Source: Candidatus Harrisonbacteria bacterium (lineage in GTDB: Bacteria > Patescibacteriota > Minisyncoccia > UBA6257 > WO2-44-18). Taken from it: DNA of 64,000 bases. The stretch lies in assembly GCA_016182295.1 (NCBI GenBank), contig JACOXP010000006.1, positions 9,298 to 73,297 of the forward strand. Reading direction: 5' to 3'. Below the pieces are notes generated by a model. The model was not told the DNA's origin. It saw nothing but the letters and a program-made list of their open reading frames with translations, and ran no database searches. Below are positions 9,693 through 59,104 of this stretch, in pieces (within the stretch, counting starts at the first letter, position 1; every line of letters starts with the position of its first letter). A program made the translations under genes and the position numbers.

Positions 9693-9693
9693 A

Positions 9694-10602: not shown

Positions 10603-10607
10603 AAGAT

Positions 10608-11966: not shown

Positions 11967-11993
11967 AAACAGGTTTAATTTAGAAACGGGGAT

Positions 11994-24357: not shown

Positions 24358-25743
24358 TTGAAGAATTTTTGGCTTTCTAGGAGTTTTAAGATAATAAGTA
24401 TGAAAACCGTATTTATAGCCGTTTTTCAAGGAACGGAATTTCGGAATATTATCCGGACAGACATTTATAAAGAATTGATCAATCAGCCGAATGTCCGCTT
24501 GGTTCTATTTACTGACAATGAAGTTAAGCGTGATTATTTCCAATCACAATTTAACGCTCCAAACGTTATTTATGAAATAGCCAATGATTATCGGCCGCAC
24601 TGGTCGGCGCCGATTTTTGGTTTTCTAAAATATAATCTGATCAAAACCGGCACTTTAGACATGAAACGCCGCAGAAAATTGGAACAAAATGGCAACTATT
24701 TTAATTATTATTTCCGATGGCTTACCAATCGCCTGTTGGCTAATCGATTGTCAAGAATTATAACTCGCTGGGCGGCGTTTCATTTAGTGCGTGACGATTT
24801 TTTTGCCTCTTATTACGATAAATACCAGCCACAAATGGTTCTATTAGCTCATCTTTTCAGCGATATCGAGACGTCAATGCTAAGAGAAGCAAAACGGCGA
24901 AAAATAATTTCTGTTGGATTGATAAACTCCTGGGACAAGTTAACTTCCAGAAATATGCTTTTGCTTTTGCCGGACAAAATGCTGGTCCATAATCGGATAG
25001 TGAAAAATGAAGCTATTCGTTTGGCTGATATGTCGAAAAAGGATATAACAATAGTCGGCATACCGCATTTCGACCATCATTTTAAAACGCCAAGGTCTTC
25101 CAAAAAGGAATTTGCTAAACGATTTGGCTTGGATCCTAACAAGCGATACGTAGTTTTTTGTCCGGAGGGAAAGACCTATATTGATTCTGATGGGCAAATG
25201 GCCAGCTTAATTGATGAAATGATTGCTAGCGGAGAATTGCCGAATGACCTCCAACTAATAATCCGCTTGCCGCCAAATGATATCATTGATATTTATCCAT
25301 ACAAAACAAAAGTGGTCATTCAGCAAGCTGGCAAGCGTTTTTCCAAGAAACGCGGAGTAGATTGGGATATGGACGAAGAAGATTTTCGGTTATTGGCTGA
25401 TACAATGCGTCATGCTTCGGTGATAATTCTTTATGCCTCAACGGTAGCAATGGACGCGGCGGTTTTCAATAAACCTCTTATCAGCGTGAATATTAAATTT
25501 CCAAATTATCCTTCCACTGATTGGGTTTATGAATATGAACATTGCGGCACTCTTTTGCGAACCGGTGGTTTGGATTACGTAAGGACACGCGCCGATTTGG
25601 CTAATTCTATCAAGCGATATCTTGAAAATCCTCAATTCAATGACGACGGTCGGAGCAGGATTCGAGAGGAGCAGTGTCATTATTTAGACGGCAGGTCAGG
25701 GAAACGTGTGGCCGAATACATCCTCGATTTGTTAAACGTTTAA
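24358..25743 (+). CDS. GT-B-like transferase with HP motif (paralog 3)
   Basis: MKTVFIAVF N-terminus (an alternative start at 24400 matches the paralog N-termini better) and C-terminal ASTVAMDAAVFNKP block; the HP position is degenerate (LPPND). Confidence 0.55.
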   Translation: MKNFWLSRSFKIISMKTVFIAVFQGTEFRNIIRTDIYKELINQPNVRLVLFTDNEVKRDYFQSQFNAPNVIYEIANDYRPHWSAPIFGFLKYNLIKTGTLDMKRRRKLEQNGNYFNYYFRWLTNRLLANRLSRIITRWAAFHLVRDDFFASYYDKYQPQMVLLAHLFSDIETSMLREAKRRKIISVGLINSWDKLTSRNMLLLLPDKMLVHNRIVKNEAIRLADMSKKDITIVGIPHFDHHFKTPRSSKKEFAKRFGLDPNKRYVVFCPEGKTYIDSDGQMASLIDEMIASGELPNDLQLIIRLPPNDIIDIYPYKTKVVIQQAGKRFSKKRGVDWDMDEEDFRLLADTMRHASVIILYASTVAMDAAVFNKPLISVNIKFPNYPSTDWVYEYEHCGTLLRTGGLDYVRTRADLANSIKRYLENPQFNDDGRSRIREEQCHYLDGRSGKRVAEYILDLLNV

Positions 25744-28901: not shown

Positions 28902-30071
28902 ATGATGAAATCAAAACCCAAACGAAAGATTTGTTTTCCAATAATGAGTCGTATCCACTACGCTCGACAGCGTGGTCTGTTAGATTTGATTAAAAAGACT
29001 CCGGGCCTCGATCTGCAGTTGATAGTTGGCGGTTCAGTTCTTTTGGATAAGTACGGAGAAAGATTTTTGCCGGCTATAAAGTCCGCCGGTTTTCCAGTGC
29101 ACGAAATTCTTTATAATGTTATCGACGGCGGCAGTCATGTTTCAATGGCAAAGACCGCCGGATTAACCGCTCTAGAAGTGTCCAATTCTTTTCACAAACT
29201 CAATCCCGATATCGTTTTGATTCGTGGAGACCGCTTCGAGCAATTAGCAACCGCGATGGTCGCCGCTTATTTGAATAAAACAGTGGCGCATATTGAAGGC
29301 GGAGACGTTACCGGAACGATTGATGAAAGCGTTCGTCACGCTATTACCAAGTTATCTCATATTCATTTTGTTACCAATGAAGATTCTCGCAGACGTGTTG
29401 TCCAAATGGGGGAAAACCCCGATTTGGTTTTTAATGTCGGATCTCTTGATATTGAATTCGCAGCCAATGTTGATAAAAAAAATAACGGTCAAATAGTAAA
29501 TCAAACCGGCGTTGGAACGGTAATAAACACCCGCAAGCCATTTTTGATGGTTATGCAGCACCCGGTAACCACGGAAAAGAATAATCGTAAAAATATGGAA
29601 ATTACTTTAAAAGCCATAGATCGTTTAAACATGCCCACCGTGGTTTTTTGGCCGAACAGCGACGCTGGCACCAATGAAGTCGCGAAAGCTATCAGAGTGT
29701 ACCGAGAAGAAGGGAGGCTTAAGAATAAAAAAATTCGGTTTGTTACCGATCTTCTGCCGGAAGGTTTTATTGCTTTATTGCGTAGATCAAGCGCGCTTAT
29801 TGGAAACTCTTCGGCGGGCATCAAGGAATCTTCTTATTTAGGCGTTCCGGTGGTTAATATAGGCACAAGACAAAGCAACCGATTACGGGGGGGGAACGTT
29901 ATAGACGTTGACTATGACACTCGGAAAATAGAAAATGCCATTAGAAAACAATTGCGGCACGGGGCATATCCTAAGTCCGATATTTATTACAAACCCGACA
30001 CCAGTAAAAAAATTGTCGATATATTAAAAAAAGTCGATCTTTACAGCCAAAAGAAATTTCATGAAATCTAA
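28902..30071 (+). CDS. UDP-N-acetylglucosamine 2-epimerase, hydrolysing type (NeuC/LegG-like)
   Basis: LIRGDRFE ... AHIEGGDVTG ... HIHF match the NeuC-type hydrolysing 2-epimerase motifs (GDRxE, HIEGG). Confidence 0.75.
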   Translation: MMKSKPKRKICFPIMSRIHYARQRGLLDLIKKTPGLDLQLIVGGSVLLDKYGERFLPAIKSAGFPVHEILYNVIDGGSHVSMAKTAGLTALEVSNSFHKLNPDIVLIRGDRFEQLATAMVAAYLNKTVAHIEGGDVTGTIDESVRHAITKLSHIHFVTNEDSRRRVVQMGENPDLVFNVGSLDIEFAANVDKKNNGQIVNQTGVGTVINTRKPFLMVMQHPVTTEKNNRKNMEITLKAIDRLNMPTVVFWPNSDAGTNEVAKAIRVYREEGRLKNKKIRFVTDLLPEGFIALLRRSSALIGNSSAGIKESSYLGVPVVNIGTRQSNRLRGGNVIDVDYDTRKIENAIRKQLRHGAYPKSDIYYKPDTSKKIVDILKKVDLYSQKKFHEI

Positions 30072-30792
30072 AGTTTTAGGAGTAATTACGGCTCGAGGCG
30101 GTTCCAAAGGAATCCCCGGGAAAAATATCAAACCATTATTGGGCAAGCCGCTTATTGCTTATACAATTGAAGCGGCAAAAAATTCTGGAGTGATCGATCG
30201 GCTAATCTTATCGACGGACGATCCGGAAATCGCAAGGGTGGCTAAAGAATACGGTTGCGAAGTGCCGTTTATGCGTCCGGCGGAGTTGGCTCAAGACAAG
30301 ACTCCGCATTTACCGGTAATGCAGCATGCCGTTCAGTGGCTGAAAGAAAACGAAAACTATTATCCGGATTATGTCATGATTTTTCAACCGACTTCTCCGC
30401 TTCGGCAAGCGTTTCATGTCCGGGAAGCGGTGGAGTTGATCCAGAAAACCGGAGCCGATTCGGTATTGAGCGTCTCCGAAATACCTAATCATTTTACGCC
30501 GCACAAGGCGATGGTAGTGGATGATCGGGGAATGCTTTCTCTTTTTAGCGGAAACCCAATTCGCAAGAGAACCGCCCGTCGCCAAGACCTCGCGAAAACT
30601 TATTGGAGTGTTGGCTCAATCTACCTTTTTAAAACAGATTTGCTTTTTCATTCGGAAGATCCTAATTTTTTTGGCGACACGGTCGCCCGCTGCGAAATTA
30701 ATCCAAAATACGTAGTTGACATCGACGTTCCCGAAGACTGGGAAGAGGCCGAGCGGGCTATGAAAAAATTACAAAATGAGCAGTCACGTTAA
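30061..30792 (+). CDS. CMP-nonulosonate (acylneuraminate) cytidylyltransferase, NeuA/LegF/PseF-like
   Basis: VLGVITARGGSKGIPGKNIKPLLGKPLIAYTI is the hallmark N-terminal motif of CMP-NeuAc/CMP-Kdo synthetases. Confidence 0.85.
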   Translation: MKSKVLGVITARGGSKGIPGKNIKPLLGKPLIAYTIEAAKNSGVIDRLILSTDDPEIARVAKEYGCEVPFMRPAELAQDKTPHLPVMQHAVQWLKENENYYPDYVMIFQPTSPLRQAFHVREAVELIQKTGADSVLSVSEIPNHFTPHKAMVVDDRGMLSLFSGNPIRKRTARRQDLAKTYWSVGSIYLFKTDLLFHSEDPNFFGDTVARCEINPKYVVDIDVPEDWEEAERAMKKLQNEQSR

Positions 30793-35784: not shown

Positions 35785-36708
35785 ATGATTGGCGAACGCT
35801 GGATGCGTTGGACCTTTGCGGAAGCTGGAACCAAAACCGTTTCCAAATTGCTACAGAAAGTCGTGGGCAATGTCAGTACCACTCTGGCGCACACGTTCTT
35901 TGCGACACTGGTTATCGGATTGGTTCAGACTATCAGCGGCCTGATCGTTTGTCGCGTCGGTAAAAAACCGATTTTTCGGGATGGAACTGGCATTCTCGGC
36001 TCATGCCTTTTTGGCTTTTTTGCCGTAGTCTCAAGCGTGCTTTCCTTCTCGGTTTTCCTTTTAGGCGGCGAAGTCGGCATTAACACTTTTATTATTACGC
36101 TTTCCATCATTCCGGGCGCGCTGATTGACCGATTCTTTTTTGGGAAGCAGCTTTCCGGAAGGGAATGGTTTGGGATTTCTGTGGCGATTTTCGCCGGATA
36201 TTCCGTTCTCGGTTGGCCATCTCCAGCGACGGCGATGAAGTTGCCGCTTTGGGTTTGGTTGTCGTTCGGGATCGCTGTTTCAGTAGCGATTAACCAAGGC
36301 ATTACCCAGAAAGTAAAAAAAGTCGATCCATTTTTTAAGAATTTCTGGGGCGGTTTGACCACAATTGTTTTAAGCTTAGCAGCGGTGACCGTGCTTGGAT
36401 CGTTTAATTTATTTGCCGATTTTTCCAAACCTATGCGGAACCTCTGGCTGGTTTCGATAGTGATCGGCGCCATTGTGGTGGGTATGTGGTCGTTCAATTT
36501 ATTGAGCTATAAAGGAGGCGCTAGTATTGCTCTGAAAAAGCTCGTGATGAATGGTGCTTATCTTATTACCGCGATGCTGGCCGGCGTTTGGCTTTTCGGA
36601 GAATCTCTGACGATTTCGAAACTCGTAGGCATCGGCCTTTTCGTCATTGCCTTTGCTTTAATGGACAGGACGACTTGGGGGTTCATTACTCGGAAACTCC
36701 TCGCTTAG
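35785..36708 (+). CDS. Polytopic membrane protein (DMT/EamA-like transporter candidate)
   Basis: About 10 predicted TM helices with duplicated 5-TM halves. Confidence 0.45.
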   Translation: MIGERWMRWTFAEAGTKTVSKLLQKVVGNVSTTLAHTFFATLVIGLVQTISGLIVCRVGKKPIFRDGTGILGSCLFGFFAVVSSVLSFSVFLLGGEVGINTFIITLSIIPGALIDRFFFGKQLSGREWFGISVAIFAGYSVLGWPSPATAMKLPLWVWLSFGIAVSVAINQGITQKVKKVDPFFKNFWGGLTTIVLSLAAVTVLGSFNLFADFSKPMRNLWLVSIVIGAIVVGMWSFNLLSYKGGASIALKKLVMNGAYLITAMLAGVWLFGESLTISKLVGIGLFVIAFALMDRTTWGFITRKLLA

Positions 36709-37767: not shown

Positions 37768-38085
37768 TTATTTTTGGAAAGTTTTGAGATAGCTAAACAT
37801 AGCTCTTCCTAAATCTCTTAAAATTAGCGCCCCAACGCTCAAAATGAGCATAATAAATATCTGAACGGCGATGTTGGTCTGCAGGAAAGCGCCTAAAAGA
37901 TACTTGGCAAATTCCCAGATATTGGAATCAGAGGCGATTGAGGCATTCTCAATAATTTTTCCAAGAAAGATTTTTCCGGCAAGCAATTTCAAAACGATAA
38001 TCAAAACCGCGACTTGAATCAGAATTAAGGGTAAGATGCGACGTAAAAACCAAATGGTATAAATTTTCCAGAGAAGTTTATTCAT
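37768..38085 (-). CDS. Small membrane protein, anti-sigma factor candidate
   Basis: 105 aa, 2-3 TM helices; start overlaps the stop of the ECF sigma factor gene (operon partner). Confidence 0.4.
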   Translation of the reverse strand: MNKLLWKIYTIWFLRRILPLILIQVAVLIIVLKLLAGKIFLGKIIENASIASDSNIWEFAKYLLGAFLQTNIAVQIFIMLILSVGALILRDLGRAMFSYLKTFQK

Positions 38086-38657
38086 TGTATTGAATCAGCG
38101 CTCAAATTCTTAAACAACCGTTTAGCCCTGAAAAGTCGCATTTTAAGGGTGGTCATGGAAATTTTTTCCAACTTGCAGATATCCTTATATGATTTGTCTT
38201 CAAGATAATAAAATCCGAGAATTCTGCCGAGGTGTTCTGGCATTTTTTCAATGACTGCCTTGACTGCCGCTTTGGCGTCGGAAACCGCGCCCAAATTATC
38301 ATCGTAGCTTAACGGTTTTTCTTCGTCGTAAAGAACGGGATCAAGATATTCCGTTGAATCAGATCGTTTTTTGACGTCTTGATATCGCGTAAAAGCGGTA
38401 TTCATTAAAATTTTGTATGCCCAGCTCTTGAATTCTATACCGGCTCTCTTTTGGAAGTTCTTGCCGTATTTATAAATTTTAACGAAGGTTTCTTGAACAA
38501 TATCTTCAGCGTCTTCTTGTCTTCGAACAATTCCCATCGCTTTGCGAATAAAAGGATCCTGATAGCGGGCAACCAGGAATTTAAATTGAGACGGATCGCG
38601 AAATGATTGGCGCAAAATCTCCTCGTCTGGGGCTTCGGGATTCATGGCCAATACCAT
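38082..38657 (-). CDS. ECF-type RNA polymerase sigma-70 family factor
   Basis: Region 2 (DIVQETFVKIYKY) and region 4 HTH (SYKDICKLEKISMTTLKMRLFRAKRL). Confidence 0.8.
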   Translation of the reverse strand: MVLAMNPEAPDEEILRQSFRDPSQFKFLVARYQDPFIRKAMGIVRRQEDAEDIVQETFVKIYKYGKNFQKRAGIEFKSWAYKILMNTAFTRYQDVKKRSDSTEYLDPVLYDEEKPLSYDDNLGAVSDAKAAVKAVIEKMPEHLGRILGFYYLEDKSYKDICKLEKISMTTLKMRLFRAKRLFKNLSADSIQ

Positions 38658-38720: not shown

Positions 38721-39842
38721 ATGAACCCAGAAACTATTTGGTCAAAAATTCAAAAGGGAGTTTTTATAATCGCCGAGGCCGGGAAGAATTTTATTCAGAC
38801 AGAAGAGGACCGGCCGGTAGAGGAATATTTGAAAAACGCGATGCGATTAGTTGACGAAGCGGCGAAAGCCGGAGCGGACGCGATTAAATTCCAAACGCAT
38901 AATGTGGAAGATGAAGTGCTTAATATCGACTTTACCTCGCCCCATTTCAATAAAAAGGGAAGCGATCGATATACTTGGGTGACTCGCAATACCAAAGCGA
39001 CACCCGTGGATAAATTTTGGAGACCGCTTAAAGAATATTGTGATCAGAAAGGTATTGTTTTTTTCTCCACGCCGATGTCCAAGGGGGCGGCGAAGATTTT
39101 AAACGAAGCAGGCGTGAATCTTTGGAAAATCGGCTCCGGAGATATTTTAGATTTTGTGTTATTGGATTATCTGCGGCAAAGCGGAAAACCGATCATTATC
39201 TCATCGGGCATGAGTACCTTGGAGGAAGTGGAACAAGCGGTGAAATTTCTTCGCGAAAAAAACGATAAGGTGGCTTTGCTGCATTGCGTTTCCAAATATC
39301 CTTGCCCGCCCGAAGAACTTCATTTAAAGACGATTGATTTATACAAAGAAAAATTTGATATGCCTATCGGTTTTTCTGACCACTCTATTGGAATCGAGCC
39401 CGATTTGGTGGCGGTAGCGATGGGGGCGACGATTTTGGAAAAGCATTTTTCCATGGCCAGAACTTTATGGGGTTCTGATCATAAAGTTTCCATGACGCCT
39501 CAAGAATTATCGGATTTAGTCAGCGGCGTAAAAAAAGTTATTAACGACGCCGGCGAAAGGCAGAAAGTATTAAATGGCGATTTTGCTAAAAGGGGAATGG
39601 GCAGCAAAACCAAAGTTTTACAAGAAGGAGAAGCGGTCTTCCGGCCATTATTTAGAAAATCCTTGATGGCCGGTCAAGATATTCCGGCGGGAACGGTGAT
39701 TACGGCAGAGATGGTTTACGCGATGCGCCCCCAGCAGTATGCTGGCGGCTTGCCATCTGAAAGATATGAAGATGTAATCGGTAAAAAAACCTCCAAAGCT
39801 TTAAAAAAATTCGACCCTCTTATTCAGGGCAACTTGGCTTAA
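38721..39842 (+). CDS. N-acetylneuraminate/nonulosonate synthase (NeuB/LegI/PseI family) with C-terminal SAF domain
   Basis: FIIAEAGKNF...AIKFQTH N-terminal TIM-barrel motifs and a C-terminal antifreeze-like (SAF) domain typical of NeuB. Confidence 0.8.
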   Translation: MNPETIWSKIQKGVFIIAEAGKNFIQTEEDRPVEEYLKNAMRLVDEAAKAGADAIKFQTHNVEDEVLNIDFTSPHFNKKGSDRYTWVTRNTKATPVDKFWRPLKEYCDQKGIVFFSTPMSKGAAKILNEAGVNLWKIGSGDILDFVLLDYLRQSGKPIIISSGMSTLEEVEQAVKFLREKNDKVALLHCVSKYPCPPEELHLKTIDLYKEKFDMPIGFSDHSIGIEPDLVAVAMGATILEKHFSMARTLWGSDHKVSMTPQELSDLVSGVKKVINDAGERQKVLNGDFAKRGMGSKTKVLQEGEAVFRPLFRKSLMAGQDIPAGTVITAEMVYAMRPQQYAGGLPSERYEDVIGKKTSKALKKFDPLIQGNLA

Positions 39843-39931
39843 ATAAAAATCCCGACCTTGACCATTTTTTGTTTTTTTGGTATCTTCTTTGCGTTGCAGT
39901 TCTTTCCAAAATCTATTTTAATGGAGGTTGT

Positions 39932-41080
39932 ATGACCAGGGTTCTTTTCGTGGCGGAGATGGCGGGGACGGTCAATGCTTTGATGAAGCCGTTGGGGTCC
40001 TCGGATTTTGATGTGTCGTTCGTGGCGAACGACGTCGCGCTTTCGATGCTCCAAAAAAGGGACATCGTTTGCCATACGTTCGAGGATGATCCAAGCAAAG
40101 TGATTGCCGGAGCTCGTCCGGACATGGTGCTTACTGGCATCAGCGCTTTTGAGCGCGGCAATCCGAAATGGAGCGGCCTCGAACTGAAGTACGCGCTAGC
40201 GGCGATGGACGCCGGAATTCCGGTGGCGATGTATCGGGATTGGCTTGGAATTGCCGCTTGGGCGAAAGAAGCCACGCAGCATCCGCGAGCCGGACAATTG
40301 CTTCATTTCTTGACCTTTGATCGGGGCACGGCTTACGCCATTCGCAAAGCGGAATGGATTTATCGGGACGTGCGCGCGGTGGGGTCTTCGTACAACGAAG
40401 ACATTTTCCAAAAAGCGACCCGCATTGAGCGCGCAACATTGCGCCAGAGACTCGGACTAAAAGCCGATGACCTGCTGGTTGTTGTGAACAGCGGTGCGGA
40501 TTCCAAGCGCGTTTTGGAAATTTTGGAGCCAGCGGTTCAAGGCCTATTGGCTCAATCGAGTTCCCGCGTTGTGTTCGCGCCGACCTTTCATCCCAAAGAC
40601 AAAGACGCGCCGTTTTACGTTGATGATCGGAAAAACTTCGTCGCTCGCGCCTCGGCTCCGTATGATCCCGTTCTTCAGCGCTTGTCCGGCAAAGTTCGGA
40701 CGATTTTCGAGCCAATCATTCGCAGCTGCATTCAGGATCCGCAGGAACGAGTGGCGGCGGCGGATTTCATTGTGATGAACCCGCTTTCGACCGATGTGCC
40801 GACTGCCATTTTTCTTGGCATTCCGATGGTCATTCCGTTCCTGCCATTGACAGCCGAGTCAGCCCGCAGTGGCATGATCGATCCGGAGAAGTATGATTAC
40901 ATCTTGAACGGAATGGCGGATTCGGTTTTCACCGGCGAAGACCTGGAACATTACATGTCGGCTCTTAGTGACCGGTATGAGGAAATCGCGGTTCGTCAGC
41001 GGGCCGAGCAGAAAAAACTGAAACCGACCGCTGATACCGAAGTAATCATCCAGGCGATCAAGACAGTTGCCACCTCCTAA
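39932..41080 (+). CDS. GC-rich divergent member of the HP-motif GT-B-like family (candidate horizontally acquired)
   Basis: Markedly higher GC (roughly mid-50s %) than flanking DNA. GGAGG Shine-Dalgarno 5-9 nt upstream of the ATG. TFHPKD motif and overall length resemble the three HP-motif paralogs. Confidence 0.5.
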   Translation: MTRVLFVAEMAGTVNALMKPLGSSDFDVSFVANDVALSMLQKRDIVCHTFEDDPSKVIAGARPDMVLTGISAFERGNPKWSGLELKYALAAMDAGIPVAMYRDWLGIAAWAKEATQHPRAGQLLHFLTFDRGTAYAIRKAEWIYRDVRAVGSSYNEDIFQKATRIERATLRQRLGLKADDLLVVVNSGADSKRVLEILEPAVQGLLAQSSSRVVFAPTFHPKDKDAPFYVDDRKNFVARASAPYDPVLQRLSGKVRTIFEPIIRSCIQDPQERVAAADFIVMNPLSTDVPTAIFLGIPMVIPFLPLTAESARSGMIDPEKYDYILNGMADSVFTGEDLEHYMSALSDRYEEIAVRQRAEQKKLKPTADTEVIIQAIKTVATS

Positions 41081-41095
41081 TTCACAAGGGTTTAT

Positions 41096-41146
41096 ACCCC
41101 CGCACTAAACGGACAAAACCGTTATAGCGCGGGGGTTTATTTTTTA
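41096..41146 (+). terminator. Rho-independent terminator
   Basis: cccccgc ... gcggggg stem (with an inner aacgg/ccgtt stem) followed by TTTATTTTTT. Confidence 0.7.
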
Positions 41147-41214
41147 ACCTTTTTAATTTAAGCTTATTTGATACAAGAAACGAGTTTACAATAAATCAGG
41201 TTTTAGTAATAAAT

Positions 41215-42099
41215 ATGCAAAATCCCAAAATTGGCATTGTTGGAGTTGGTTGGGTGGGCGCCCAGCTCAAAAGATACTTTGAAGAATTTAGAGGATATAA
41301 ATCCGGAGAAGATCTTTTTGCTTATGATATTGATCCGAAAAAATGTGTTGGCGATCTCAATAAAGCCGACATTATTTTTCTTACTGTTCCGACGCCGCGC
41401 GATCCGCAGACCGGTGTTTGCGACACCTCAATTGTTGATAGCGCGATTAAAAAAATTCCAGGAGAAAAAATCATCGTTATCAAATCAACCGTTCCTCCAG
41501 GCACTACCGAACGTTTGCAAAAAGAACACCCGCAACATAAAATGCTTTTTAATCCGGAATTTTTGAGCGAAAAAACCGCCTGGCATGATATGTTGCGTCC
41601 CGATCGGCAGATTGTCGGTTTTACCGAAAAAAGCATGGACGCCGCTCATTTAGTCCTATCTCTATTGCCGAAGGCGCCTTTTATGTCGCCTTGGGGCGTA
41701 AGTACGTACCAGCAGACCAGAATCGCAGCTACTGAAGCGGAATTGATTAAATACGCCGGTAATGTTTATTTTGCCCAAAAAGTTAATTGGGCGAACGCCT
41801 TGGCCGCGGTATCCGAGAAACTCGGCGCCAATTATGAAAATGTGCGAAAGGGTATGTCAGCCGATCACCGGATTGGCGATTCTCATCTTGATGTCACTCA
41901 CGGCGGTTACCGAGGTTTTGGCGGATATTGCTTCCCCAAAGACCTTTCTGCTTTTATGGCGTTTGCTAAAGAGCAGGGGCTTCATAATGTCCACGATCTT
42001 TTAAAAGCGGCATGGGATTTTAACGGCAGATTGCTGGAATCACAGGGTTTGACTTATGATGATGTGAGTAGACACATCGATGAGTTCAAGCAATCTTAA
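41215..42099 (+). CDS. UDP-glucose/GDP-mannose dehydrogenase family protein lacking the C-terminal UDP-sugar domain
   Basis: N-terminal NAD domain (KIGIVGVGWVGAQL, KSTVPPGTT), central domain NPEFL and GGYCFPKD catalytic-Cys region, but only about 40 aa follow the Cys before the stop. Confidence 0.6.
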   Translation: MQNPKIGIVGVGWVGAQLKRYFEEFRGYKSGEDLFAYDIDPKKCVGDLNKADIIFLTVPTPRDPQTGVCDTSIVDSAIKKIPGEKIIVIKSTVPPGTTERLQKEHPQHKMLFNPEFLSEKTAWHDMLRPDRQIVGFTEKSMDAAHLVLSLLPKAPFMSPWGVSTYQQTRIAATEAELIKYAGNVYFAQKVNWANALAAVSEKLGANYENVRKGMSADHRIGDSHLDVTHGGYRGFGGYCFPKDLSAFMAFAKEQGLHNVHDLLKAAWDFNGRLLESQGLTYDDVSRHIDEFKQS

Positions 42100-44230
42100 A
42101 AATTACTATATTTGGGGCATTAAAGCCCTGGTTTTTATAATTCCATTTTTGTCCGTTTGGATTGCCACCTCAATGTATTTTCCATACATTACGGGACGGA
42201 ATTTTGGTTTTCGGATTTTAGTTGAAGTAGCGTTGGTTCTTTACATAGCCTTGGCGATTCTTGATAAACGATATCGTCCGCGAATGAATTTGCTTTCTTG
42301 GGCGATTCTAGTTTTCGTTGGCATTGTCGGCATCGCTGATTTATTCGGTGTGGATCCGATGCGTAGCCTCTGGTCTAACTATGAGCGAATGGAGGGTTAT
42401 ATTACAATTCTGCATCTCGGCGCTTATTTTTTTGTTTTGACTAATTTGTTCAGAAGCAAGAAAGAGTGGCTGGTTTTTTTTAGAGTTTTTTTAGCCGCCG
42501 GCCTATGGGTGGGTATATATGGAGTGCTTCAGATTTTTGGGGTTAAAGAAGCAATCCAAGGAAATGGCGCTCGTATTGATGGAACAATTGGCAATCCAAC
42601 TTATTTAGCAGTCTATTTAACCTTGATTATAGGCCTTAGTTTGATATTGTTTTTTAATACGCAAAGCCGCAGTTGGAAATATTTCTACGGGTCAATAATC
42701 GCCTTTCTGATTTCTATAATGTTTTTTACGGCAAGTCGAGGCGCCGCATTAGCTTGGGCAATTGCCGTGCCGCTCTTTTTAATTTTATATCTCTGGCTTT
42801 TCCGCAAGGAAAAAGGCGGCGAAAAAGTAAGAAAAATTATGATCGGTATTCTGATCGCCATGGTAATAGCGCCCCCTTTATTTTTGTTAATAAAAAACCA
42901 GTCGTGGGTTAGAGAGCACCCGGTTCTTTCTCGTTTCACTCAAATTTCGTTTCAAGAAAGAACCACCCGTTCTCGTTTTATGATTTGGGGAATGGGCGCG
43001 CAAGGGTTTTTAGAGCGCCCGCTTCTTGGTTGGGGGCAGGAAAATTATCTTCAAGTTTTTTCCAAATATTACAACCCAAGTCTTTATGATCAGGAGCCGT
43101 GGTTTGACCGCTCGCATAATATAGTTTTTGATTGGTTGATAAACGCTGGCATTTTGGGTCTGTTGGCTTATCTTTCGCTCTTCACGACTTACTACGTATT
43201 GTTTGCTCGCGGTTGGAAGTCCGGTAAAGTCGGCAAGAAAGAAGGACTTGTTTTATTGGTTCTGCCCATCGCTTATTTTATTCAGAATCTTTTCGTTTTC
43301 GACAATATCAACACCTATATCATCTTCTTTACACTTCTTGCCTACGTGAATAACTGGGAGTCCGAGTCGATTGTTGAGCGTAGGGATAGGGTAATTGCAG
43401 AAATTAAACCGTCCTTAATCGCTCTTGCTGTTAGCGGATTAATTGCTTTGCCTATCGTTTATTTAGCTAACGTCAAACCCGCTTTACAAGCGAGGTCAAT
43501 TATCAGTGGTTTAGCCGCTACTTCCAGCAGTAAAGATCCCGTTGGCGAAACCCTTAGCGCTTTTGAGAAAGCTTTATCTTACAACACTTTTGGCAATGGT
43601 GAAGCGCTTGAACAGCTCGGTAGAGTAACCAGAAACTTACTCGACCAAGACGTTCCCAATCAAATTAAAACCCGTTTTATTAATTATCTAGTCCCCAAAA
43701 TCGAAGAATATTTAAAAAAACATCCTAACGATATTCGAATTCATCTTTTTATTGCCGATATCTATCAATCAGCCATTAATATCGATGAATCTTATGTGCT
43801 TAAAGCTCGCGAACATTTTGAAGCGGCCTTAGCGCTTAGTCCCCAAAAACAGCAAATCCTTACGGCGCTCGCCAACAATTTTTTGTTTACCGGCGAAAGT
43901 GAAAAATCTTTTGAGCTTTTACGCAAAGCTATTGATGTTGAGCCATCCAACATAGAAGCTCATGGAAATTATGCGATTTATGCGGTTTTGGCTAGTCGCA
44001 ACGATCTCGTTGCGGAAGAAATCGCGGAAATGAATCGCCTCCAGAAAAACTTGGAGAAGCGAGGCGAATCCGCCTTCAACGATTACCTCGATCAACTTAA
44101 AAGAATCGCTGAAATTTATCGACGGGTTGATCAGATACAAAATGCCATTATTATTTATCAAGAATTGATTAGACTTTCTCCGACCAATGTTAATTTCCAG
44201 ACTGCCTTAAAAGAATTACAGTCAAAATAA
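42080..44230 (+). CDS. O-antigen ligase/polymerase-like (Wzy_C) membrane protein with C-terminal TPR repeats
   Basis: About 12 TM helices with FFTASRGAALAWAIAVPLF (Wzy_C periplasmic loop motif); C-terminal 250 aa of TPR-like repeats. Confidence 0.7.
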   Translation: MSSSNLKNYYIWGIKALVFIIPFLSVWIATSMYFPYITGRNFGFRILVEVALVLYIALAILDKRYRPRMNLLSWAILVFVGIVGIADLFGVDPMRSLWSNYERMEGYITILHLGAYFFVLTNLFRSKKEWLVFFRVFLAAGLWVGIYGVLQIFGVKEAIQGNGARIDGTIGNPTYLAVYLTLIIGLSLILFFNTQSRSWKYFYGSIIAFLISIMFFTASRGAALAWAIAVPLFLILYLWLFRKEKGGEKVRKIMIGILIAMVIAPPLFLLIKNQSWVREHPVLSRFTQISFQERTTRSRFMIWGMGAQGFLERPLLGWGQENYLQVFSKYYNPSLYDQEPWFDRSHNIVFDWLINAGILGLLAYLSLFTTYYVLFARGWKSGKVGKKEGLVLLVLPIAYFIQNLFVFDNINTYIIFFTLLAYVNNWESESIVERRDRVIAEIKPSLIALAVSGLIALPIVYLANVKPALQARSIISGLAATSSSKDPVGETLSAFEKALSYNTFGNGEALEQLGRVTRNLLDQDVPNQIKTRFINYLVPKIEEYLKKHPNDIRIHLFIADIYQSAINIDESYVLKAREHFEAALALSPQKQQILTALANNFLFTGESEKSFELLRKAIDVEPSNIEAHGNYAIYAVLASRNDLVAEEIAEMNRLQKNLEKRGESAFNDYLDQLKRIAEIYRRVDQIQNAIIIYQELIRLSPTNVNFQTALKELQSK

Positions 44231-49787: not shown

Positions 49788-49858
49788 CGGGGTGTAGTAT
49801 ACCGGCAGTACGCGCGCTTCGGGTGCGTGAAGACCGGGTTCAATTCCCGGCACCCCGA
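49788..49858 (+). tRNA. tRNA-Pro (anticodon CGG), no genomically encoded CCA
   Basis: Hand-folded cloverleaf: acceptor CGGGGTG/CACCCCG, D-stem GTAT/GTAC, anticodon stem CGCGC/GCGTG with loop TTCGGGT (U33, CGG, G37), T-arm CCGGG-TTCAATT-CCCGG; discriminator A followed by CA. Confidence 0.8.
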
Positions 49859-49863
49859 CATTT

Positions 49864-55445: not shown

Positions 55446-55925
55446 ATGGAGAAAAATTCTTATTTTAAGTTTGTCGCGGTTTTTTTGGTTATTATCGCTT
55501 TAGGCGTTGGCGGCTATTTTATTTTTCGGGGAGAAAATCAGACGGAAAAAGCCGAGCGAGGGTTCCGGCAGTATGAAGAAGCGATGCGCGCCGACACTTA
55601 CGGAGGAAAAACTCCGCAGGAAACGCTGGATCTTTTTATTGAAGCCCTTCGCGCGGAAGATATCGAACTAGCGAGTAAGTATTTTTTATATGACGACAAT
55701 TTAAGCAAACAAAAATGGGTTGATCGCCTTAACGAAATAAAAAATAAAGGACTTTTAGAAATTATGGCGAATGATATAGAAACGCGCGCAAAAGAAGACG
55801 TTAAAAATAAAATTAGCGAAAATGATTTTAAATTTGTTCTATATGCCGACAACGAGCAGGTCGGTGCTCGGATCGATATGCAGTTTAATACTTATTCCGG
55901 AGTATGGAAAATAGAAAGCTTGTAA
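55446..55925 (+). CDS. Hypothetical protein with N-terminal TM anchor
   Basis: ORF; single N-terminal TM helix; charged soluble domain. Confidence 0.35.
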   Translation: MEKNSYFKFVAVFLVIIALGVGGYFIFRGENQTEKAERGFRQYEEAMRADTYGGKTPQETLDLFIEALRAEDIELASKYFLYDDNLSKQKWVDRLNEIKNKGLLEIMANDIETRAKEDVKNKISENDFKFVLYADNEQVGARIDMQFNTYSGVWKIESL

Positions 55926-58900
55926 TTTTAATCCCGGTTATACTGGGATTTTTCTTTGCTACTCAACCTGCGAGTGCGTACAGTACCAAAACCCACGCTT
56001 TTTTAACTAAAGCGACCTTGGAGTCGTATAACAAGCATTTTGAAAGTAAAATAGACGAAGAACTATGGCCGTATTTGATTGACGGCACTCGGAAAGAAGA
56101 TGAGTTTCCAAGATATTGGAATCATTTTTATGACCCCGTAAACGACAGGGGTCTAGAATCGGGGATTTATGGAAACGGCTATAAGTCTAAAAAATGGGCA
56201 ATGGACGACAAAGCCCAGAAGAGCAGCCTTTATAGAAACGCGGCAACCATCGGGTCAATTTTGACAGCCATTCAGCAGAGAAGCTTGGAAGGTTTTACGA
56301 TTCAGTCAGATTACACGTGGCAACAGGCAGTCAAACAATACATTGCCGGCGATGAGGAAAAAGCGTTTTACGCCCTAGGTCACGTTTTGCATTTGATTCA
56401 GGACGCTTCAGTGCCCGACCATACCCGCAACGATCCCCACCCGCCCATAGAAGGCGGCAGTCCTTACGAGGATTGGACCGAGCGGTTTAATTTGGAAAAT
56501 CCGGATAATGCCGTGCGGCTCCAAGTTTTATATAAAAAACCAGTTATTTTAGAAACTTTGGAGGAATATTTTGATTCCATAGCCAATTATTCTAATAATA
56601 ATTTTTATAGTCGAGATACAGTCGGATTAACTCATGGATATAAAATGCCAGAACCAGATTATTTTGCTCTATACGATGGTGAAAGTTACGGATTTAAAAC
56701 AGATAAAGAATTTGGCGATTACAAACTTTTATGGGGCAACGGAATTTTTGAATGGTCATCTGGAGGAGGAGCGCTTTTAATTGGTTTAGATCCAGTACTG
56801 AATGACTACTGGAACCGCCTTTCTGTAAAAGCGGTTCAGCATGGGGCGGGAGTGATTGATTTATTTTTTAAAGACGTTGAAAAAACGCGCAAAGAATTGG
56901 CAAATATTGAAGAAAAGAAATCCTTCTTCGCTCAAATTGTTGACGCGGTGAGAAATCTTTTTGGCGGTGACTCGGAAGACGAGCCGGTGCTAGAAATTGA
57001 AATTACCAGTTCGGATTTGATCAATGATTCCAAAACAGATCAAACAAATCAAATTGCCCAAATTGAAGAAGCGTCTAGCGTGATTGATAGTATAGAAATT
57101 CTTAATGAACAATTTGAAACCATAGTTGAGCAGGAACAAGTCCAATGGTGCGGATTTACAACTAGCAAATCGCCGACCAAGCAAAATTTAATAATCAACG
57201 AAGTTGCCTGGATGGGCTCAATTTCGAGCGCCAATGCTGAATGGATTGAATTGAAAAACATTTCCGGTTCCGAATTGGAGGTTGCTGATTGGCAAATGTT
57301 TGACGCAAAAGAGGATATCAAAGTAAAACTTTCGGGAAAAATTCCGGCTGGAGGATTTTACCTGCTTGAGAGAACTGACGACGACTCCGTTCCCGGCGTT
57401 TCGGCTGACCAAATCTACACAGGCGCTCTTTCCAATACTAGCGAGGGATTGCGGCTGTTTAATACAAGCTGTGATTTATTGGATGAGGTGATAGCCAATC
57501 CGAATTGGCCGGCTGGAAGCAATAACAATAAACACACGATGGAGCGAATGAATAATTTTTCCTGGAGAAATTATAGCGGCGGACAACAAAACGGTATTTA
57601 TGGAACTCCTAAAGCGGAGAATAGCTCCGGAGAAAATCCAGATAGCGCTAGTTCGGGATCGCCGACTCCCAAATCTGACCCGCAACCAACTTTGACGCCA
57701 ACTCCTACTCCGACTCCGACTCCTACTCCGACTCCTACTCCGACTCCAACACAAACTCCAACGCCAACCCCCACACCGGAGCCAGGACCGACTATCCAGA
57801 AAGTTTTAATAAGCGAATTTCTTTTTGACGCCGAGGGAAGCGACAGCGGCAAAGAATTTATTGAGCTTTACAATCCCGGGGATCAGGCCGTTGATATTTC
57901 CAATTGGTCCGTTCAGCATGTTTCCGGAAGCGGTTCTATAAGCAAGAAAAACTTTGAGACGGGAAATTCTATCGCGCCTAAAAGCTTTTTTCTTATTTGG
58001 CTTGGCAATTCGCCGGGTTCGCCACAAGCGGATATGGTTTGGGCGAGCGGAAGTTTAAATAACACAAACGCCACTATTTATTTGGTTGGCGATACCTCGC
58101 AAATTTCCACCACCAGCCCTGTTTCAGTTGACGCTGTCGGCTATGACGTCAATAATATTTCCGGATTTTCCGCGGGAATGAGTTTAGAAAGAAAAGCACT
58201 TTCTGGAAGCGATTGTGTTTCGGCTCAAAACGCCGGCGAATACTTGGGAAATGGTTGCGATACTGATCAAGCGAACGATTTTGAATTAAGAGAAACACCG
58301 AATCCGCAAAACACCCAAAGCTTGCCGGAGCCGCGCAATTCTCCGGCAGCCGCGGAAGACTTCAATGCTGAGGCGAACAAACTCAGCGTTGATTTTAGTT
58401 GGACTGCCGAATCGAATTTAAATTACGAAATTTACGCGAAAATCAATTCCGATTATTCGCTTCTTGGATCAACCCCGGATAGCGGTTACTCAACCTTAGT
58501 TAAAGAGACCAGTCGGGATTATACCTTTGTCATAAAATCCATAGACAAAGACGGCCTTTCTTCGGAAACCTTGCCAGAAACCATCGTTGAAGTCCCCAGC
58601 TTGATTACCGGAATTGATTTTCACGGAGACCCGAATGTCGCAACCAGCACAAGAATTCAAATCAACTTTGCCGAATATCCGTTCGTGCCGACTATTTTCA
58701 ACAAGCCGAACACCTGGAAAATTTTAGTTTTCTATCTTAATCAAGTTCCGGACAGCGCCCCGAATTACTTAAATACCGCTATTAGTTGGCAGCCCGAAGA
58801 TTTGTCAGGGATATTGTATATAAAATACCCCGGTTGCGCCGGCGGAAATTCTCATCATTATTCTTTGATAATACCGGATGTCGCGGAACGTTGCGGAACC

Positions 58901-59104
58901 GGCGGAGGAGTAATGAACAGAGCTTTTTATTTCGATAAAATAAATGAAAATGATTTAGAACTTGAGGTAATTTCAGAAACGGGATTTTCGGACACTGATT
59001 ATCTTACCGTGGCTTATTATGATTTTTCCACATCTGGGGGAGGAAACCAGGGGTTTAGTTTAGCGGCAATTGATAAGACAAAATATTATTTTCAGGCGGA
59101 TTGA
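55904..59104 (+). CDS. Large secreted multidomain protein: S1-P1 nuclease / zinc phospholipase C-like domain, two lamin-tail domains, Pro-Thr linker
   Basis: Signal peptide. HLIQDASVPDH fits the HxxGDxxxPxH zinc-site pattern of the S1-P1/PLC fold. Two LTD-like segments (LIINEVAWMGS..AEWIELKN; VLISEFLFDAEG..EFIELYNPG). (PT)n linker. Confidence 0.5.
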   Translation: MENRKLVILIPVILGFFFATQPASAYSTKTHAFLTKATLESYNKHFESKIDEELWPYLIDGTRKEDEFPRYWNHFYDPVNDRGLESGIYGNGYKSKKWAMDDKAQKSSLYRNAATIGSILTAIQQRSLEGFTIQSDYTWQQAVKQYIAGDEEKAFYALGHVLHLIQDASVPDHTRNDPHPPIEGGSPYEDWTERFNLENPDNAVRLQVLYKKPVILETLEEYFDSIANYSNNNFYSRDTVGLTHGYKMPEPDYFALYDGESYGFKTDKEFGDYKLLWGNGIFEWSSGGGALLIGLDPVLNDYWNRLSVKAVQHGAGVIDLFFKDVEKTRKELANIEEKKSFFAQIVDAVRNLFGGDSEDEPVLEIEITSSDLINDSKTDQTNQIAQIEEASSVIDSIEILNEQFETIVEQEQVQWCGFTTSKSPTKQNLIINEVAWMGSISSANAEWIELKNISGSELEVADWQMFDAKEDIKVKLSGKIPAGGFYLLERTDDDSVPGVSADQIYTGALSNTSEGLRLFNTSCDLLDEVIANPNWPAGSNNNKHTMERMNNFSWRNYSGGQQNGIYGTPKAENSSGENPDSASSGSPTPKSDPQPTLTPTPTPTPTPTPTPTPTPTQTPTPTPTPEPGPTIQKVLISEFLFDAEGSDSGKEFIELYNPGDQAVDISNWSVQHVSGSGSISKKNFETGNSIAPKSFFLIWLGNSPGSPQADMVWASGSLNNTNATIYLVGDTSQISTTSPVSVDAVGYDVNNISGFSAGMSLERKALSGSDCVSAQNAGEYLGNGCDTDQANDFELRETPNPQNTQSLPEPRNSPAAAEDFNAEANKLSVDFSWTAESNLNYEIYAKINSDYSLLGSTPDSGYSTLVKETSRDYTFVIKSIDKDGLSSETLPETIVEVPSLITGIDFHGDPNVATSTRIQINFAEYPFVPTIFNKPNTWKILVFYLNQVPDSAPNYLNTAISWQPEDLSGILYIKYPGCAGGNSHHYSLIIPDVAERCGTGGGVMNRAFYFDKINENDLELEVISETGFSDTDYLTVAYYDFSTSGGGNQGFSLAAIDKTKYYFQAD
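57696..57778 (+). repeat. Tandem 12-bp (ACTCCGACTCCT-like) repeat encoding a Pro-Thr linker
   Basis: Direct tandem repetition visible in the sequence; encodes PTPTPTPTPTPTPTPTPTPTQTPTPTPTP. Confidence 0.8.

Follow-up and report, generated by a model that had tools for sequence, protein, structure and literature searches.

High GC content of a gene in a Harrisonbacteria surface-glycan locus is the hallmark of its whole small family

Introduction

A deviation in GC content and codon usage is a routine argument for the recent transfer of a gene from a compositionally different donor. We have analysed a stretch of 64,000 nucleotides (the window) from a Candidatus Harrisonbacteria MAG (CPR, Parcubacteria), in which one gene, at 39932-41080, deviates in this manner. 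A first-pass annotation proposed that it had been acquired horizontally from a donor of higher GC content, as a fourth paralog of the HP-motif proteins encoded in the same locus. The question raised is whether the composition of this gene tells us where it came from. We find that the deviation is real, yet it is common to orthologs in which synonymous sites are saturated, and it is independent of host GC. To our knowledge the surface chemistry of CPR bacteria is almost unknown, and it is to nonulosonic-acid glycan loci in these organisms that the family is tied.

A GC-rich island confined to one coding sequence

The coding sequence at 39932-41080 (+ strand) has a GC content of 54.7%, compared with 42.4-42.6% for the window; this is well outside the distribution of the 56 other ORFs of the window (0.429 ± 0.029; z = 4.1). 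The values at the three codon positions (GC1, GC2 and GC3) are 0.595, 0.420 and 0.624, of which GC3 has z = 3.7 relative to the same 56 ORFs (0.436 ± 0.051), and the GC content at four-fold sites (GC4) is 0.70, against 0.51 ± 0.06 (z = 3.0). Divided into 1-kb bins, the window has its maximum of 54.7% at 40001-41000, and the second-highest bin is at 48.2%. The dinucleotide signature of the coding sequence lies at a distance of 138 from that of the window, while 22 genes of comparable size give 70 ± 22 with a maximum of 126. All four measures (GC, GC3, GC4 and dinucleotides) set the gene apart. The codon profile (GCG, CCG, TCG, CGC, GGC) is of the type seen in high-GC genomes, and Ala, Arg, Pro and Asp are abundant in the protein.

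The edges of the island are sharp. GC is 0.32-0.34 in the 150 nt preceding the ATG at 39932, 0.50-0.62 inside the coding sequence, and falls to 0.24-0.26 past the terminator, so that the abrupt rise and fall described in the first-pass annotation are borne out. Its view that the antisense ORFs are spurious is also upheld. The ORF list contains a 191-aa ORF at 40140-40715 (- strand), which is not part of the feature, and a 120-aa antisense ORF at 39913-40275. Only in the window copy does the former exceed the length obtained with synonymous shuffles, and neither the position nor the length of this frame is kept in orthologs. Across the 12 orthologs compared no alternative frame is consistently open beyond synonymous shuffles. 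The antisense ORFs are therefore by-products of the composition, and an overlapping antisense gene is rejected. No tandem repeats or phase-variation tracts were found.

The composition is shared by the orthologs

The family is tiny, comprising about 15 clusters among 1.84 billion cluster representatives. We denote the window copy W, and the other loci carrying family members by an L with a number. A GC island is present in 13 of 14 ortholog loci, with the gene at 51-64% and the flanks at 37-51% (for example 0.591 against 0.367 in L020, and 0.636 against 0.413 in L013). Seven of the 13 GC-island loci share the position of the gene in the window, between a neuB-type and a dehydrogenase-like gene. 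The elevation is seen at each codon position as well as in the variable residues, is confined to the coding sequence, and occurs in hosts of 37-51% GC. Gene GC is not correlated with host GC (Spearman 0.18, p = 0.57), and GC3 groups by gene clade, not by host. The lowest GC3 of the family (0.57-0.62) is found in the clade of W, L014 and L015; this could equally be read as partial amelioration.

The orthologs are very divergent. At four-fold sites the third-position identity between the window copy and its orthologs is 0.30-0.36, where composition leads to an expectation of 0.28-0.31; in each of these comparisons the sites are saturated. The nearest homolog of the window protein is only 46% identical, so the homology search that was to have identified the donor lineage can name none. 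No copy was found in GC-rich flanking DNA among the 14 loci, and there are no relatives in plasmid, phage or viral-contig collections; a phage or plasmid origin is rejected on the latter result.

The first-pass annotation had considered that relatives might be equally GC-rich because of a constraint on protein composition. The equal richness is found, and its supposed cause is not, since GC3 and GC4 are raised and the GARP content of variable alignment columns is 0.26-0.36, compared with 0.15-0.23 in neighbouring genes. Protein composition alone is rejected on this evidence. Furthermore, L001 has, beside the GC-rich gene, a remote paralog of low GC (0.44; hhalign 88.7%, E = 2.6e-6), and P0019, the closest outgroup, has host-like GC, so that the GT-B fold itself requires no GC-rich coding.

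Other GC-rich, SD-bearing genes are present in the same loci. One of these, L001 3759-4763, represents a second GC-rich family that is likewise rare, and its single homolog with a named source comes from a CPR genome, Giovannonibacteria. Polarised substitutions suggest that GC is maintained in some lineages (GC* of 0.6-0.86) and decays in L010 and L011, but the counts are tiny and too parsimony-biased to choose between maintenance and decay. Taken over the family, high GC is a shared hallmark and no mark of recent import into this genome.

Expression signals around the gene

A consensus scan finds a sigma-70-like promoter candidate at 39858-39886 (+ strand; TTGACC, 17 nt, TG-TATCTT; 9/12 matches with an extended -10 TG). 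The number of promoter-like sites in the region is not above that in shuffles, and the promoter role is putative, being drawn from resemblance to the consensus. TTGACA-type -35 and TAnnnT -10 boxes are also found 5' of the orthologs in L001, L004, L010, L014, L015 and L020.

The Shine-Dalgarno (SD) sequence GGAGG, as read from the sequence, lies at 39923-39927 (+ strand), 4 nt before the ATG. Its rarity, remarked upon in the first-pass annotation, is real; GGAGG precedes 4 of 57 window ORFs, and any GGAG or GAGG only 10 of 57. SD-like sites are found 5' of nearly all orthologs, while the genes neighbouring the orthologs are without them. Genes bearing an SD have a GC content 6.8 points above their locus median (p = 2e-5), and the association persists with the FHPKD family left out (p = 0.003).

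The gene is followed by an intrinsic terminator at 41097-41145 (+ strand), in which a bulged G+C-rich hairpin (41097-41135) precedes UUUAUUUUUU, the U-run (41136-41145). The calculated folding energy is -29.3 kcal/mol (z = -6.35 relative to shuffles), in keeping with its earlier description as strong; a simple terminator scan overlooked it because the stem is bulged. Most orthologs have a hairpin and T-run 3' of the stop codon, weaker in L015 and L019, and the combination of promoter-like site, SD and terminator is present in nearly all of them. In L001 and L004/L010 the promoter and leader resemble each other, though the genomic contexts differ.

The upstream leaders cannot be aligned across the family. 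Several orthologs have leader hairpins, and the window copy is without a structured leader. A search of Rfam at lenient thresholds gave no match in the window region or in 10 ortholog loci, and on these three grounds a structured RNA or riboswitch is rejected. When mRNA folding is compared with that of synonymous shuffles the family has a mean z of about -2.4 and neighbouring genes about -1.3; the excess is modest, and selection for mRNA structure beyond composition is rejected.

The protein and its predicted fold

The 382-aa product, whose start is fixed by the alignment of orthologs, has the same sequence (100% identity) as HYT03_01240 from a Candidatus Harrisonbacteria MAG, and three other assemblies of the same strain also contain the gene. 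Searches of Pfam, NCBIfam and PDB sequences with the single protein gave nothing, including Pfam Glyphos_transf (PF04464) at E <= 0.1. The 15 family members have no Pfam or NCBIfam match, and none to Glyphos_transf even at E <= 10; more distant relatives match Glyphos_transf (P0022-P0030) and Epimerase_2. The family is thus a GT-B family without annotation, linked to nonulosonic-acid glycan loci in CPR bacteria.

The AF2 model (pLDDT 91, pTM 0.86) shows a predicted GT-B fold, with two Rossmann domains and an inter-domain cleft. Foldseek places MurG (TM scores 0.59-0.60), the MnaA/NeuC 2-epimerases (0.56-0.58 for MnaA) and GT1 enzymes at the top of its matches; there are 158 structural matches in the PDB at E <= 1e-3, and the top ones are all GT-B. 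The motif TFHPKD reported in the first-pass annotation is present at residues 218-223, H220 being invariant in 15 members, while 14 of the 15 have P221. The family also has an invariant YRD followed by a near-invariant Gly (G106), and [ED]MxGT. In alignments, the invariant His of (F)HPKD falls on the HP motif of the 2-epimerases. Among solved structures the only significant sequence-profile match is to a WbpI-type 2-epimerase (E = 2.6e-4), which places HP on HP and is partial, covering residues 91-226 only.

From the fold and motif we infer that the enzyme binds a nucleotide-activated sugar, with H220 at the phosphate, and that it is a nucleotide-sugar enzyme, probably a transferase. Most likely it would transfer a CMP- or CDP-activated unit (a NeuB-derived acid) onto a lipid-linked glycan, which would then be handled by the Wzx flippase and Wzy_C/TPR protein encoded downstream.

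The locus and its resident glycosyltransferases

The gene is flanked on the left by a neuB-type nonulosonic acid synthase gene (38721-39842, + strand; Pfam NeuB and SAF; reaching the NCBIfam cut-off of neither NeuB nor PseI), with a host-like GC of 0.44. On the right is a gene for a UDP-sugar dehydrogenase-like protein of 294 aa (41215-42099, + strand), also of host-like GC, which matches Pfam UDPG_MGDP_dh_N and the central domain, with no Pfam match to the C-terminal dehydrogenase domain. The conserved order is EamA, neuB, the gene studied here, the dehydrogenase-like gene and Wzy_C/TPR, then a flippase and Bac_transf. In L001, L002/L011, L017 and L020 the ortholog is preceded by a neuB-type gene, either directly or at a distance of one to two genes, and the dehydrogenase-like gene has the same downstream position in L001, L003, L011, L019 and L020; the neuB / dehydrogenase slot is occupied by a member of the family in L001, L002/L011, L003, L017, L019 and L020. 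The EamA-like genes of raised GC in the window (35785-36708) and L001 (4925-5962) have no homology to each other.

The window encodes three resident TagB-like proteins of the Glyphos_transf type (10308-11966, 19406-20737 and 24358-25743) and a canonical NeuC identified by Pfam (28902-30071). To call the 382-aa protein a fourth paralog was too strong. BLASTP within the window finds no paralog of it, and hhalign against 10308-11966 and 19406-20737 gives E = 0.036 and 0.05, with a probability of about 1%; 24358-25743 was compared by BLASTP only. The HP motifs do coincide in a 278-column alignment with 10308-11966. Paralogy with the resident glycosyltransferases is rejected as undetectable by either method, and comparison of the sequences points to a relation at the superfamily level only. 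Nor is the size that of the HP-motif family as had been stated, the residents having 443-552 aa.

In 12 loci, direct or inverted repeats on either side of the gene do not exceed those in shuffles, and a 20-nt inverted repeat around the window copy (39830-39849 / 41151-41170) is no better than chance (p = 0.10). After the hairpins of the family come T-runs, in the manner of terminators, in place of the attC core sequence. Boundaries of transposon or integron type are rejected on the basis of the repeats and of these T-runs. The only tRNA is 8.7 kb from the gene, and no integrase was noted among the flanking genes scanned.

Lateral movement with retention of composition

In L020 a frameshifted second neuB (9122-9741) is a pseudogene scar. 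It matches the neuB genes of L017, W and L002 at 58-62% and L020's own at only 50%, and has a GC3 of 0.38-0.53, like hosts of about 45% GC. This shows a donor of about 45% GC in which the gene was already GC-rich; here the GC-richness demonstrably predates a transfer, and the transfer was from a low-GC donor. The neuB of L011 is closest to that of L017 (73%), while for its cassette gene and its dehydrogenase the best match is L001 (63% and 84%), so that the similarity between L001, L011 and L017 forms a mosaic. Some copies are found elsewhere, in DUF2238/MurA/MreB, NusG-L11 and gas-vesicle gene contexts. Inheritance has been vertical between L004 and L010 (flanks 67-79% and gene 75% identical), and the gene is the GC-richest in both.

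The family thus moves laterally between related CPR lineages with its composition kept. From the islands at 13 of 14 loci, the saturation, the independence of host GC and the scar in L020, it follows that the composition travels with a mobile cassette, and is therefore uninformative on the GC content of the donor. Of the proposal of horizontal acquisition, the foreign composition, the autonomous unit, the HP-motif GT-B enzyme in a glycan locus and the lateral traces in the family all stand; the donation from a higher-GC genome to this one is not supported, the orthologs at 13 of 14 loci being as GC-rich, or more so, relative to their flanks.

Is the composition maintained?

The reading that we prefer, with a probability of about one half, is that 39858-41145 is a self-contained single-gene cassette, and that a gene-specific pressure keeps the GC content of the family high, independently of donor and host. 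The cassette would consist of the promoter-like site, the GGAGG SD, the coding sequence and the intrinsic terminator, set within a nonulosonic-acid surface-glycan locus. The weakest step is that a G+C-favouring pressure on the coding region would maintain the composition. Our best guess is selection linked to expression of the cassette mRNA, a structured and G+C-rich message provided with a strong SD, while most genes of the hosts have none. On this view the base composition of donor genomes would have played no part.

The main competitor, possible and distinctly less probable than the preferred reading, is that the family is at equilibrium in unsampled GC-rich lineages (about 60%) from which low-GC CPR bacteria are repeatedly re-seeded, each copy being a fairly young import at its own stage of amelioration in the same glycan locus. 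The independence of gene GC from host GC, with GC3 clustering by gene clade, would be accounted for, as would the clear lateral exchange and movement into other contexts, the decay-like substitution counts in L010 and L011, the codon profile resembling high-GC genomes, and the other GC-rich, SD-bearing genes in the same loci; moreover, most sampled contigs are short. Yet searches of 1.84 billion cluster representatives and of 5.8 billion clusters yield no reservoir copy, the scar in L020 points to a low-GC donor, and the second GC-rich family is also rare, with a named homolog in a CPR genome (Giovannonibacteria). In L004/L010 a vertically inherited gene is the GC-richest in both. The GC edges are sharp at the coding sequence and the facing ends of neuB and the dehydrogenase gene are host-like, and thus there has been no homologous replacement from a uniformly GC-rich locus. 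A recent acquisition by this genome from a higher-GC donor, not yet ameliorated, we consider improbable. It would explain the outlying GC, GC3, GC4 and dinucleotide signature of a gene with its own SD and terminator and no detectable similarity to resident glycosyltransferases, but the same island exists in same-slot orthologs of deeply diverged relatives and synonymous sites are saturated against every homolog, the closest being 46% identical. In addition, neither GC-rich flanks (14 loci) nor plasmid, phage and viral collections hold a copy, the sole preserved donor DNA (the L020 neuB) is about 45% GC, and neither flanking repeats nor mobility genes were found. Judged by the first number in their names, presumably the GC percentage, named Harrisonbacteria genomes appear to span roughly 38-49% GC.

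Slightly less probable again is GC-biased gene conversion, in which the cassette would recombine unusually often and mismatch repair biased towards GC would lift its GC. Recombination breakpoints do adjoin the gene, and a shift of all codon positions and variable residues is what a fixation bias at the nucleotide level would give. Against this, the shift of about +20 to +35 points in GC3 is far above anything known to have been reported for bacteria. The shift ends exactly at the ends of the coding sequence, where conversion tracts should spill into the flanking anchor genes, and alleles of 35-64% amino acid identity are too divergent for heteroduplex formation. Very unlikely indeed is an origin in amino acid requirements, a hidden overlapping antisense gene or a structured RNA: the protein is Ala/Arg/Pro/Asp-rich and the 191-aa antisense ORF exceeds synonymous shuffles, but GC3 and GC4 are both high, GARP residues are enriched in the variable columns, there is a remote paralog of low GC as well as an outgroup with the GC of its host, the antisense frames are unconserved and Rfam gives no match.

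If a gene-specific force does maintain the GC content, this small family would allow selection or biased fixation on the base composition of one gene to be studied in a clean natural setting. More tentatively, and with a good deal of doubt, Parcubacteria genomes in which SD sequences are mostly absent may carry a small class of rare, laterally circulating cassettes with a strong promoter, an SD, a GC-rich body and a strong terminator, whose GC set-point, intrinsic to the gene, would be kept by selection on expression irrespective of the mutational bias of the host. A possible mechanism would be that structured mRNAs are translated in an SD-dependent manner under a control of their own. Were this class real, composition would be a heritable, selected family trait, and GC deviation would fail systematically as a sign of recent transfer for such genes. 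The link with the SD in SD-poor CPR hosts provides a concrete and testable hypothesis.

Comparison with known systems

The best structural matches are the 2-epimerases (Epimerase_2: WecB/MnaA, NeuC, WbpI) and MurG, and the position of the gene beside a sugar dehydrogenase recalls wecB-wecC. Unlike the 2-epimerases, the protein has no Pfam Epimerase_2 match, and the positions aligned to EAGLR and PEE are unconserved; the motifs of the catalytic carboxylates (GDT, EAGLR and PEE) thus do not appear to be kept in the family. The window already encodes a canonical NeuC.

In sialyltransferases the HP-motif His contacts the CMP phosphate, and the bacterial GT-B sialyltransferases of GT38, GT52 and GT80 are defined by D/E-D/E-G and HP motifs (PMC2169525). 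The cassette protein resembles these in its two predicted Rossmann domains, in the HP His that would be expected at the donor phosphate, and in the linkage of its gene to neuB, neuA and neuC. It differs in that no D/E-D/E-G is conserved in the family alignment, where the nearest candidates are MDAG (unconserved) and RDxxG, and there is no sialyltransferase among its best 50 structural matches. TagB-like transferases of pseudaminic or legionaminic acid with an HP motif are known in Tannerella (PMC5420450). With such TagB/TagF-like enzymes (Tannerella forsythia, NCBIfam BFO_1060 family) the cassette protein has in common the GT-B fold, an HP motif near the start of the C-terminal domain and a nonulosonic-acid glycan locus, and distant relatives of the family match Pfam Glyphos_transf. 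By contrast, the 15 family members have no Pfam or NCBIfam match, hhalign against the residents is non-significant, and the protein is shorter, at 382 aa, than the resident TagB-like proteins (443-552 aa).

As a genetic unit the cassette resembles phage morons and small genomic islets, with a promoter-like site, an SD, one gene, a terminator, odd composition and lateral movement. Unlike morons it has no prophage context and no relatives in viral, phage or plasmid collections, and unlike a simple islet its odd composition is common to orthologs with saturated synonymous divergence. Among the usual signs of a genomic islet the atypical composition is present; the site is occupied in related genomes, and there are no significant repeats, no integrase among the flanking genes scanned and no tRNA nearer than 8.7 kb.

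Enterobacterial O-antigen and capsule clusters have an atypical, usually low, GC content. The cassette departs from these in being GC-rich in AT-rich hosts, in having a single gene and in having its edges at the coding sequence. Like them, it carries a surface-glycan gene that is laterally exchanged and whose composition lies lastingly off that of the host.

The cassette gene and its glycan locus

The cassette gene (39932-41080, plus strand, 382 aa) stands out sharply from the surrounding DNA. The mean GC content of the window is 42.6%, against 54.7% in the 1-kb bin 40001-41000; all other bins are at 48.2% or below. The coding sequence has a GC content of 0.547 (0.595, 0.420 and 0.624 at the three codon positions), compared with 0.429 ± 0.029 (0.436 ± 0.051 at the third position, GC3) for the 56 other ORFs, making it an outlier in both GC (z = 4.1) and GC3 (z = 3.7). 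Four-fold sites are 0.70 GC, against 0.51 ± 0.06 for window genes, and in dinucleotide signature, too, the gene is an outlier (138, where similar-sized genes average 70 ± 22). The GC island recognized in the first-pass annotation is thus borne out, as are its GGAGG Shine-Dalgarno sequence (SD; 39923-39927, plus strand), which is found upstream of just 4 of the 57 window ORFs, and its strong terminator, a plus-strand hairpin at 41097-41135 with a U-run (-29.3 kcal/mol, z = -6.35). The antisense ORFs it described are real, and behave as by-products of the composition. A promoter-like site (TTGACC-17-TATCTT) lies at 39858-39886 on the plus strand; such sites are no more numerous in the cassette region than in shuffled sequences. 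A longer, TTG-initiated ORF from 39869 was rejected, as ortholog alignment does not support its start.

The gene lies among neuC (28902-30071), neuA (30061-30792), neuB (38721-39842), genes for three TagB-like proteins (10308-11966, 19406-20737 and 24358-25743), a Wzy_C/TPR gene (42080-44230), and a flippase and a Bac_transf-type gene assigned by homology to annotated genes of L001, another locus with an ortholog. The UDP-glucose/GDP-mannose dehydrogenase-like neighbour (41215-42099) and its orthologs are short (294-314 aa); consistently, from locus to locus, they match the NAD-binding and central domains but not the C-terminal one. Between an EamA transporter and neuB, the minus strand (37768-38657) carries the gene of a 191-aa ECF-type sigma factor (Sigma70_r2/r4_2) and, overlapping it, a hydrophobic ORF of 105 aa; neither has a counterpart there in L001. 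The window contains a single RNA gene, for tRNA-Pro(CGG), at 49788-49859, and 55904-59104 encodes a 1066-aa protein with lamin-tail domains.

Fold and probable activity of the protein

The cassette protein has the same sequence as HYT03_01240 from a Candidatus Harrisonbacteria MAG. An assembly chimera is ruled out, since the cassette junctions recur across three independent assemblies. Sequence searches of Pfam, NCBIfam and the PDB gave no match to the protein. The AlphaFold model, for which the alignment of the family was used, is confident (pLDDT 91) and has a GT-B fold, and the top structural matches in the PDB are MurG, 2-epimerases of the MnaA/NeuC/WbpI type and GT1 enzymes. Within the family H220 is invariant, as is a YRD motif, with a near-invariant glycine (G106) three residues later; [ED]MxGT is a further motif.

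In sialyltransferases the histidine of the HP motif touches the CMP phosphate (PMC2169525), and the motif also occurs in TagB-like Pse/Leg transferases of Tannerella (PMC5420450). Unlike the sialyltransferases, the cassette family lacks the D/E-D/E-G motif. We infer that the product belongs to the HP clade of nucleotide-sugar enzymes and would use a nucleotide-activated donor in the neuB-linked pathway, most likely as a CMP- or CDP-donor transferase. The main alternative is an epimerase or hydrolase that is the partner of the adjacent dehydrogenase. The family profile gives a weak yet significant match to WbpI-type epimerases (E = 2.6e-4, FHPK aligned to VHPR), and distant relatives found by profile search match Glyphos_transf and Epimerase_2 weakly. 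At the sites that align with epimerase motifs, the family shows no conservation. The protein had been described as a fourth HP-motif paralog; to call it a paralog of the resident TagB-like proteins is unjustified, since none is detected by BLASTP, and the hhalign comparisons with 10308-11966 and 19406-20737 reach only E = 0.036-0.05. The accompanying description as a divergent homolog with the HP motif, placed in a glycan locus, is valid at the superfamily level only.

A family of GC islands

The family is tiny: a search of 5.8 billion clusters yields 7, and one of 1.84 billion cluster representatives yields about 15 clusters at E < 1e-30. A neuB-type and/or dehydrogenase-like gene adjoins the ortholog in the window and in L001, L002/L011, L003, L017, L019 and L020, and on contigs covering both flanks the gene sits between the two. 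Collinearity between L001 and the window spans about ten genes, with protein identities of 50-64%.

High GC content is family-wide, limited to the coding sequence and independent of the host. DNA context was recovered for 14 loci, and in 13 the ortholog is a GC island (gene 0.51-0.64, flanks 0.37-0.51, difference +0.09 to +0.22); the exception is L014 (+0.04 only), where the gene is preceded by NusG and L11. The rise is limited to the CDS in all loci, and the GC content of the gene shows no correlation with that of the host (rho = 0.18, p = 0.57). Both GC3 and GC4 are raised, and variable alignment columns are rich in GARP residues (0.26-0.36 vs 0.15-0.23 in neighbouring genes), which together rule out an amino-acid artefact.

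L001 also contains, between neuB and the GC-rich cassette gene, a 369-aa remote paralog (8759-9868, minus strand; hhalign 88.7%, E = 2.6e-6, HPRDE aligned to HPKDP) with weak matches to Glyphos_transf and Epimerase_2. Its GC content is host-like (0.44), as is that of the nearest outgroup protein, P0019, on a CPR-like contig; thus the fold itself needs no GC-rich coding.

Shine-Dalgarno sequences and leaders

Resident genes in cassette loci nearly always lack an SD (GGAG or GAGG in 10 of 57 window ORFs). In our survey of the window, L001, L002/L011, L015 and L020, SDs are found instead on GC-rich genes: the cassette orthologs, L001 3759-4763 and 4925-5962, window gene 35785-36708, and likewise the NUDIX gene of L002/L011. 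Pooled, SD-bearing genes lie 6.8 GC points over the locus median (p = 2e-5), and the association persists without the cassette family (p = 0.003, n = 14 vs 109). L001 3759-4763 (GC 0.62) belongs to a very small family of 12 homologs, at least one of them from Candidatus Giovannonibacteria, a CPR genome.

The window copy has no structured leader. A common promoter/leader sequence occurs in differing contexts at L001 9900-10000, L004 500-600 and L010 5200-5306 (TTGACA..TGCTAATAT, then a GCTAAAC..GGTTTAGC hairpin and T-run), and L005 150-190 and L013 1620-1660 share the leader motif GACTCYGCCAGYGGRGCRCRCTGGTA although their proteins are just 34% identical. An Rfam search of the leaders gave no match.

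Lateral exchange and the origin of the high GC content

The cassette has been exchanged laterally among relatives. In L020 the host is 36.7% GC and the cassette gene 59.1%. Directly upstream is a frameshifted second neuB copy (9122-9741), nearer to neuB of L017, the window and L002 (58-62%) than to L020's own (50%), and this is a scar of lateral acquisition. Its codon-position GC (GC3 0.38-0.53) fits hosts of about 45% GC and not a 60% donor; therefore the source of the cassette was a low-GC relative, where it was already a GC island. In L011, neuB is closest to that of L017 (73%), and the cassette gene and dehydrogenase to those of L001 (63% and 84%), so that recombination breakpoints must lie inside the glycan locus. 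Between L001 and L011, identity is 23% for EamA, 58% for neuB, 63% for the cassette gene, 84% for the dehydrogenase and 81-83% for downstream secreted proteins.

In L004 and L010 the gene is vertically inherited, and some other copies have unrelated genomic contexts. That of L015 lies directly 3′ of a gas-vesicle cluster (166-2774; GvpG, GvpO, GvpL/F, GvpA, GvpK) on a contig of 44% GC. Precomputed Pfam matches place an intein with a LAGLIDADG homing endonuclease in the dehydrogenase-like gene 3′ of the L020 cassette (11335-13560, 741 aa). A search for flanking repeats, mobility genes and phage or plasmid relatives found none.

Lateral movement is not the explanation of the high GC content. The first-pass annotation proposed recent acquisition from a higher-GC donor, which is unsupported as stated: nearly all the orthologs are themselves GC islands, and four-fold sites are saturated. 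When the window copy is compared with its orthologs at conserved residues, third-position identity at these sites is 0.30-0.36, where composition predicts 0.28-0.31; they are no more alike than composition predicts, so an imported composition should have decayed by now. The main rival to a pressure acting on the gene is supply of the family from an unsampled GC-rich reservoir. GC-biased conversion could raise the GC content, but is a poor fit to the sharp boundaries at the CDS. A gene-specific pressure, and not donor composition, would keep GC high, and we favour expression-linked selection, in which an SD goes with a G+C-rich, stable message in SD-poor hosts; the evidence for it is indirect.

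The gene thus adds a new, unannotated enzyme to a known fold class, and its GC island, which persists independently of the host, is an unusual form of the familiar compositional islet.
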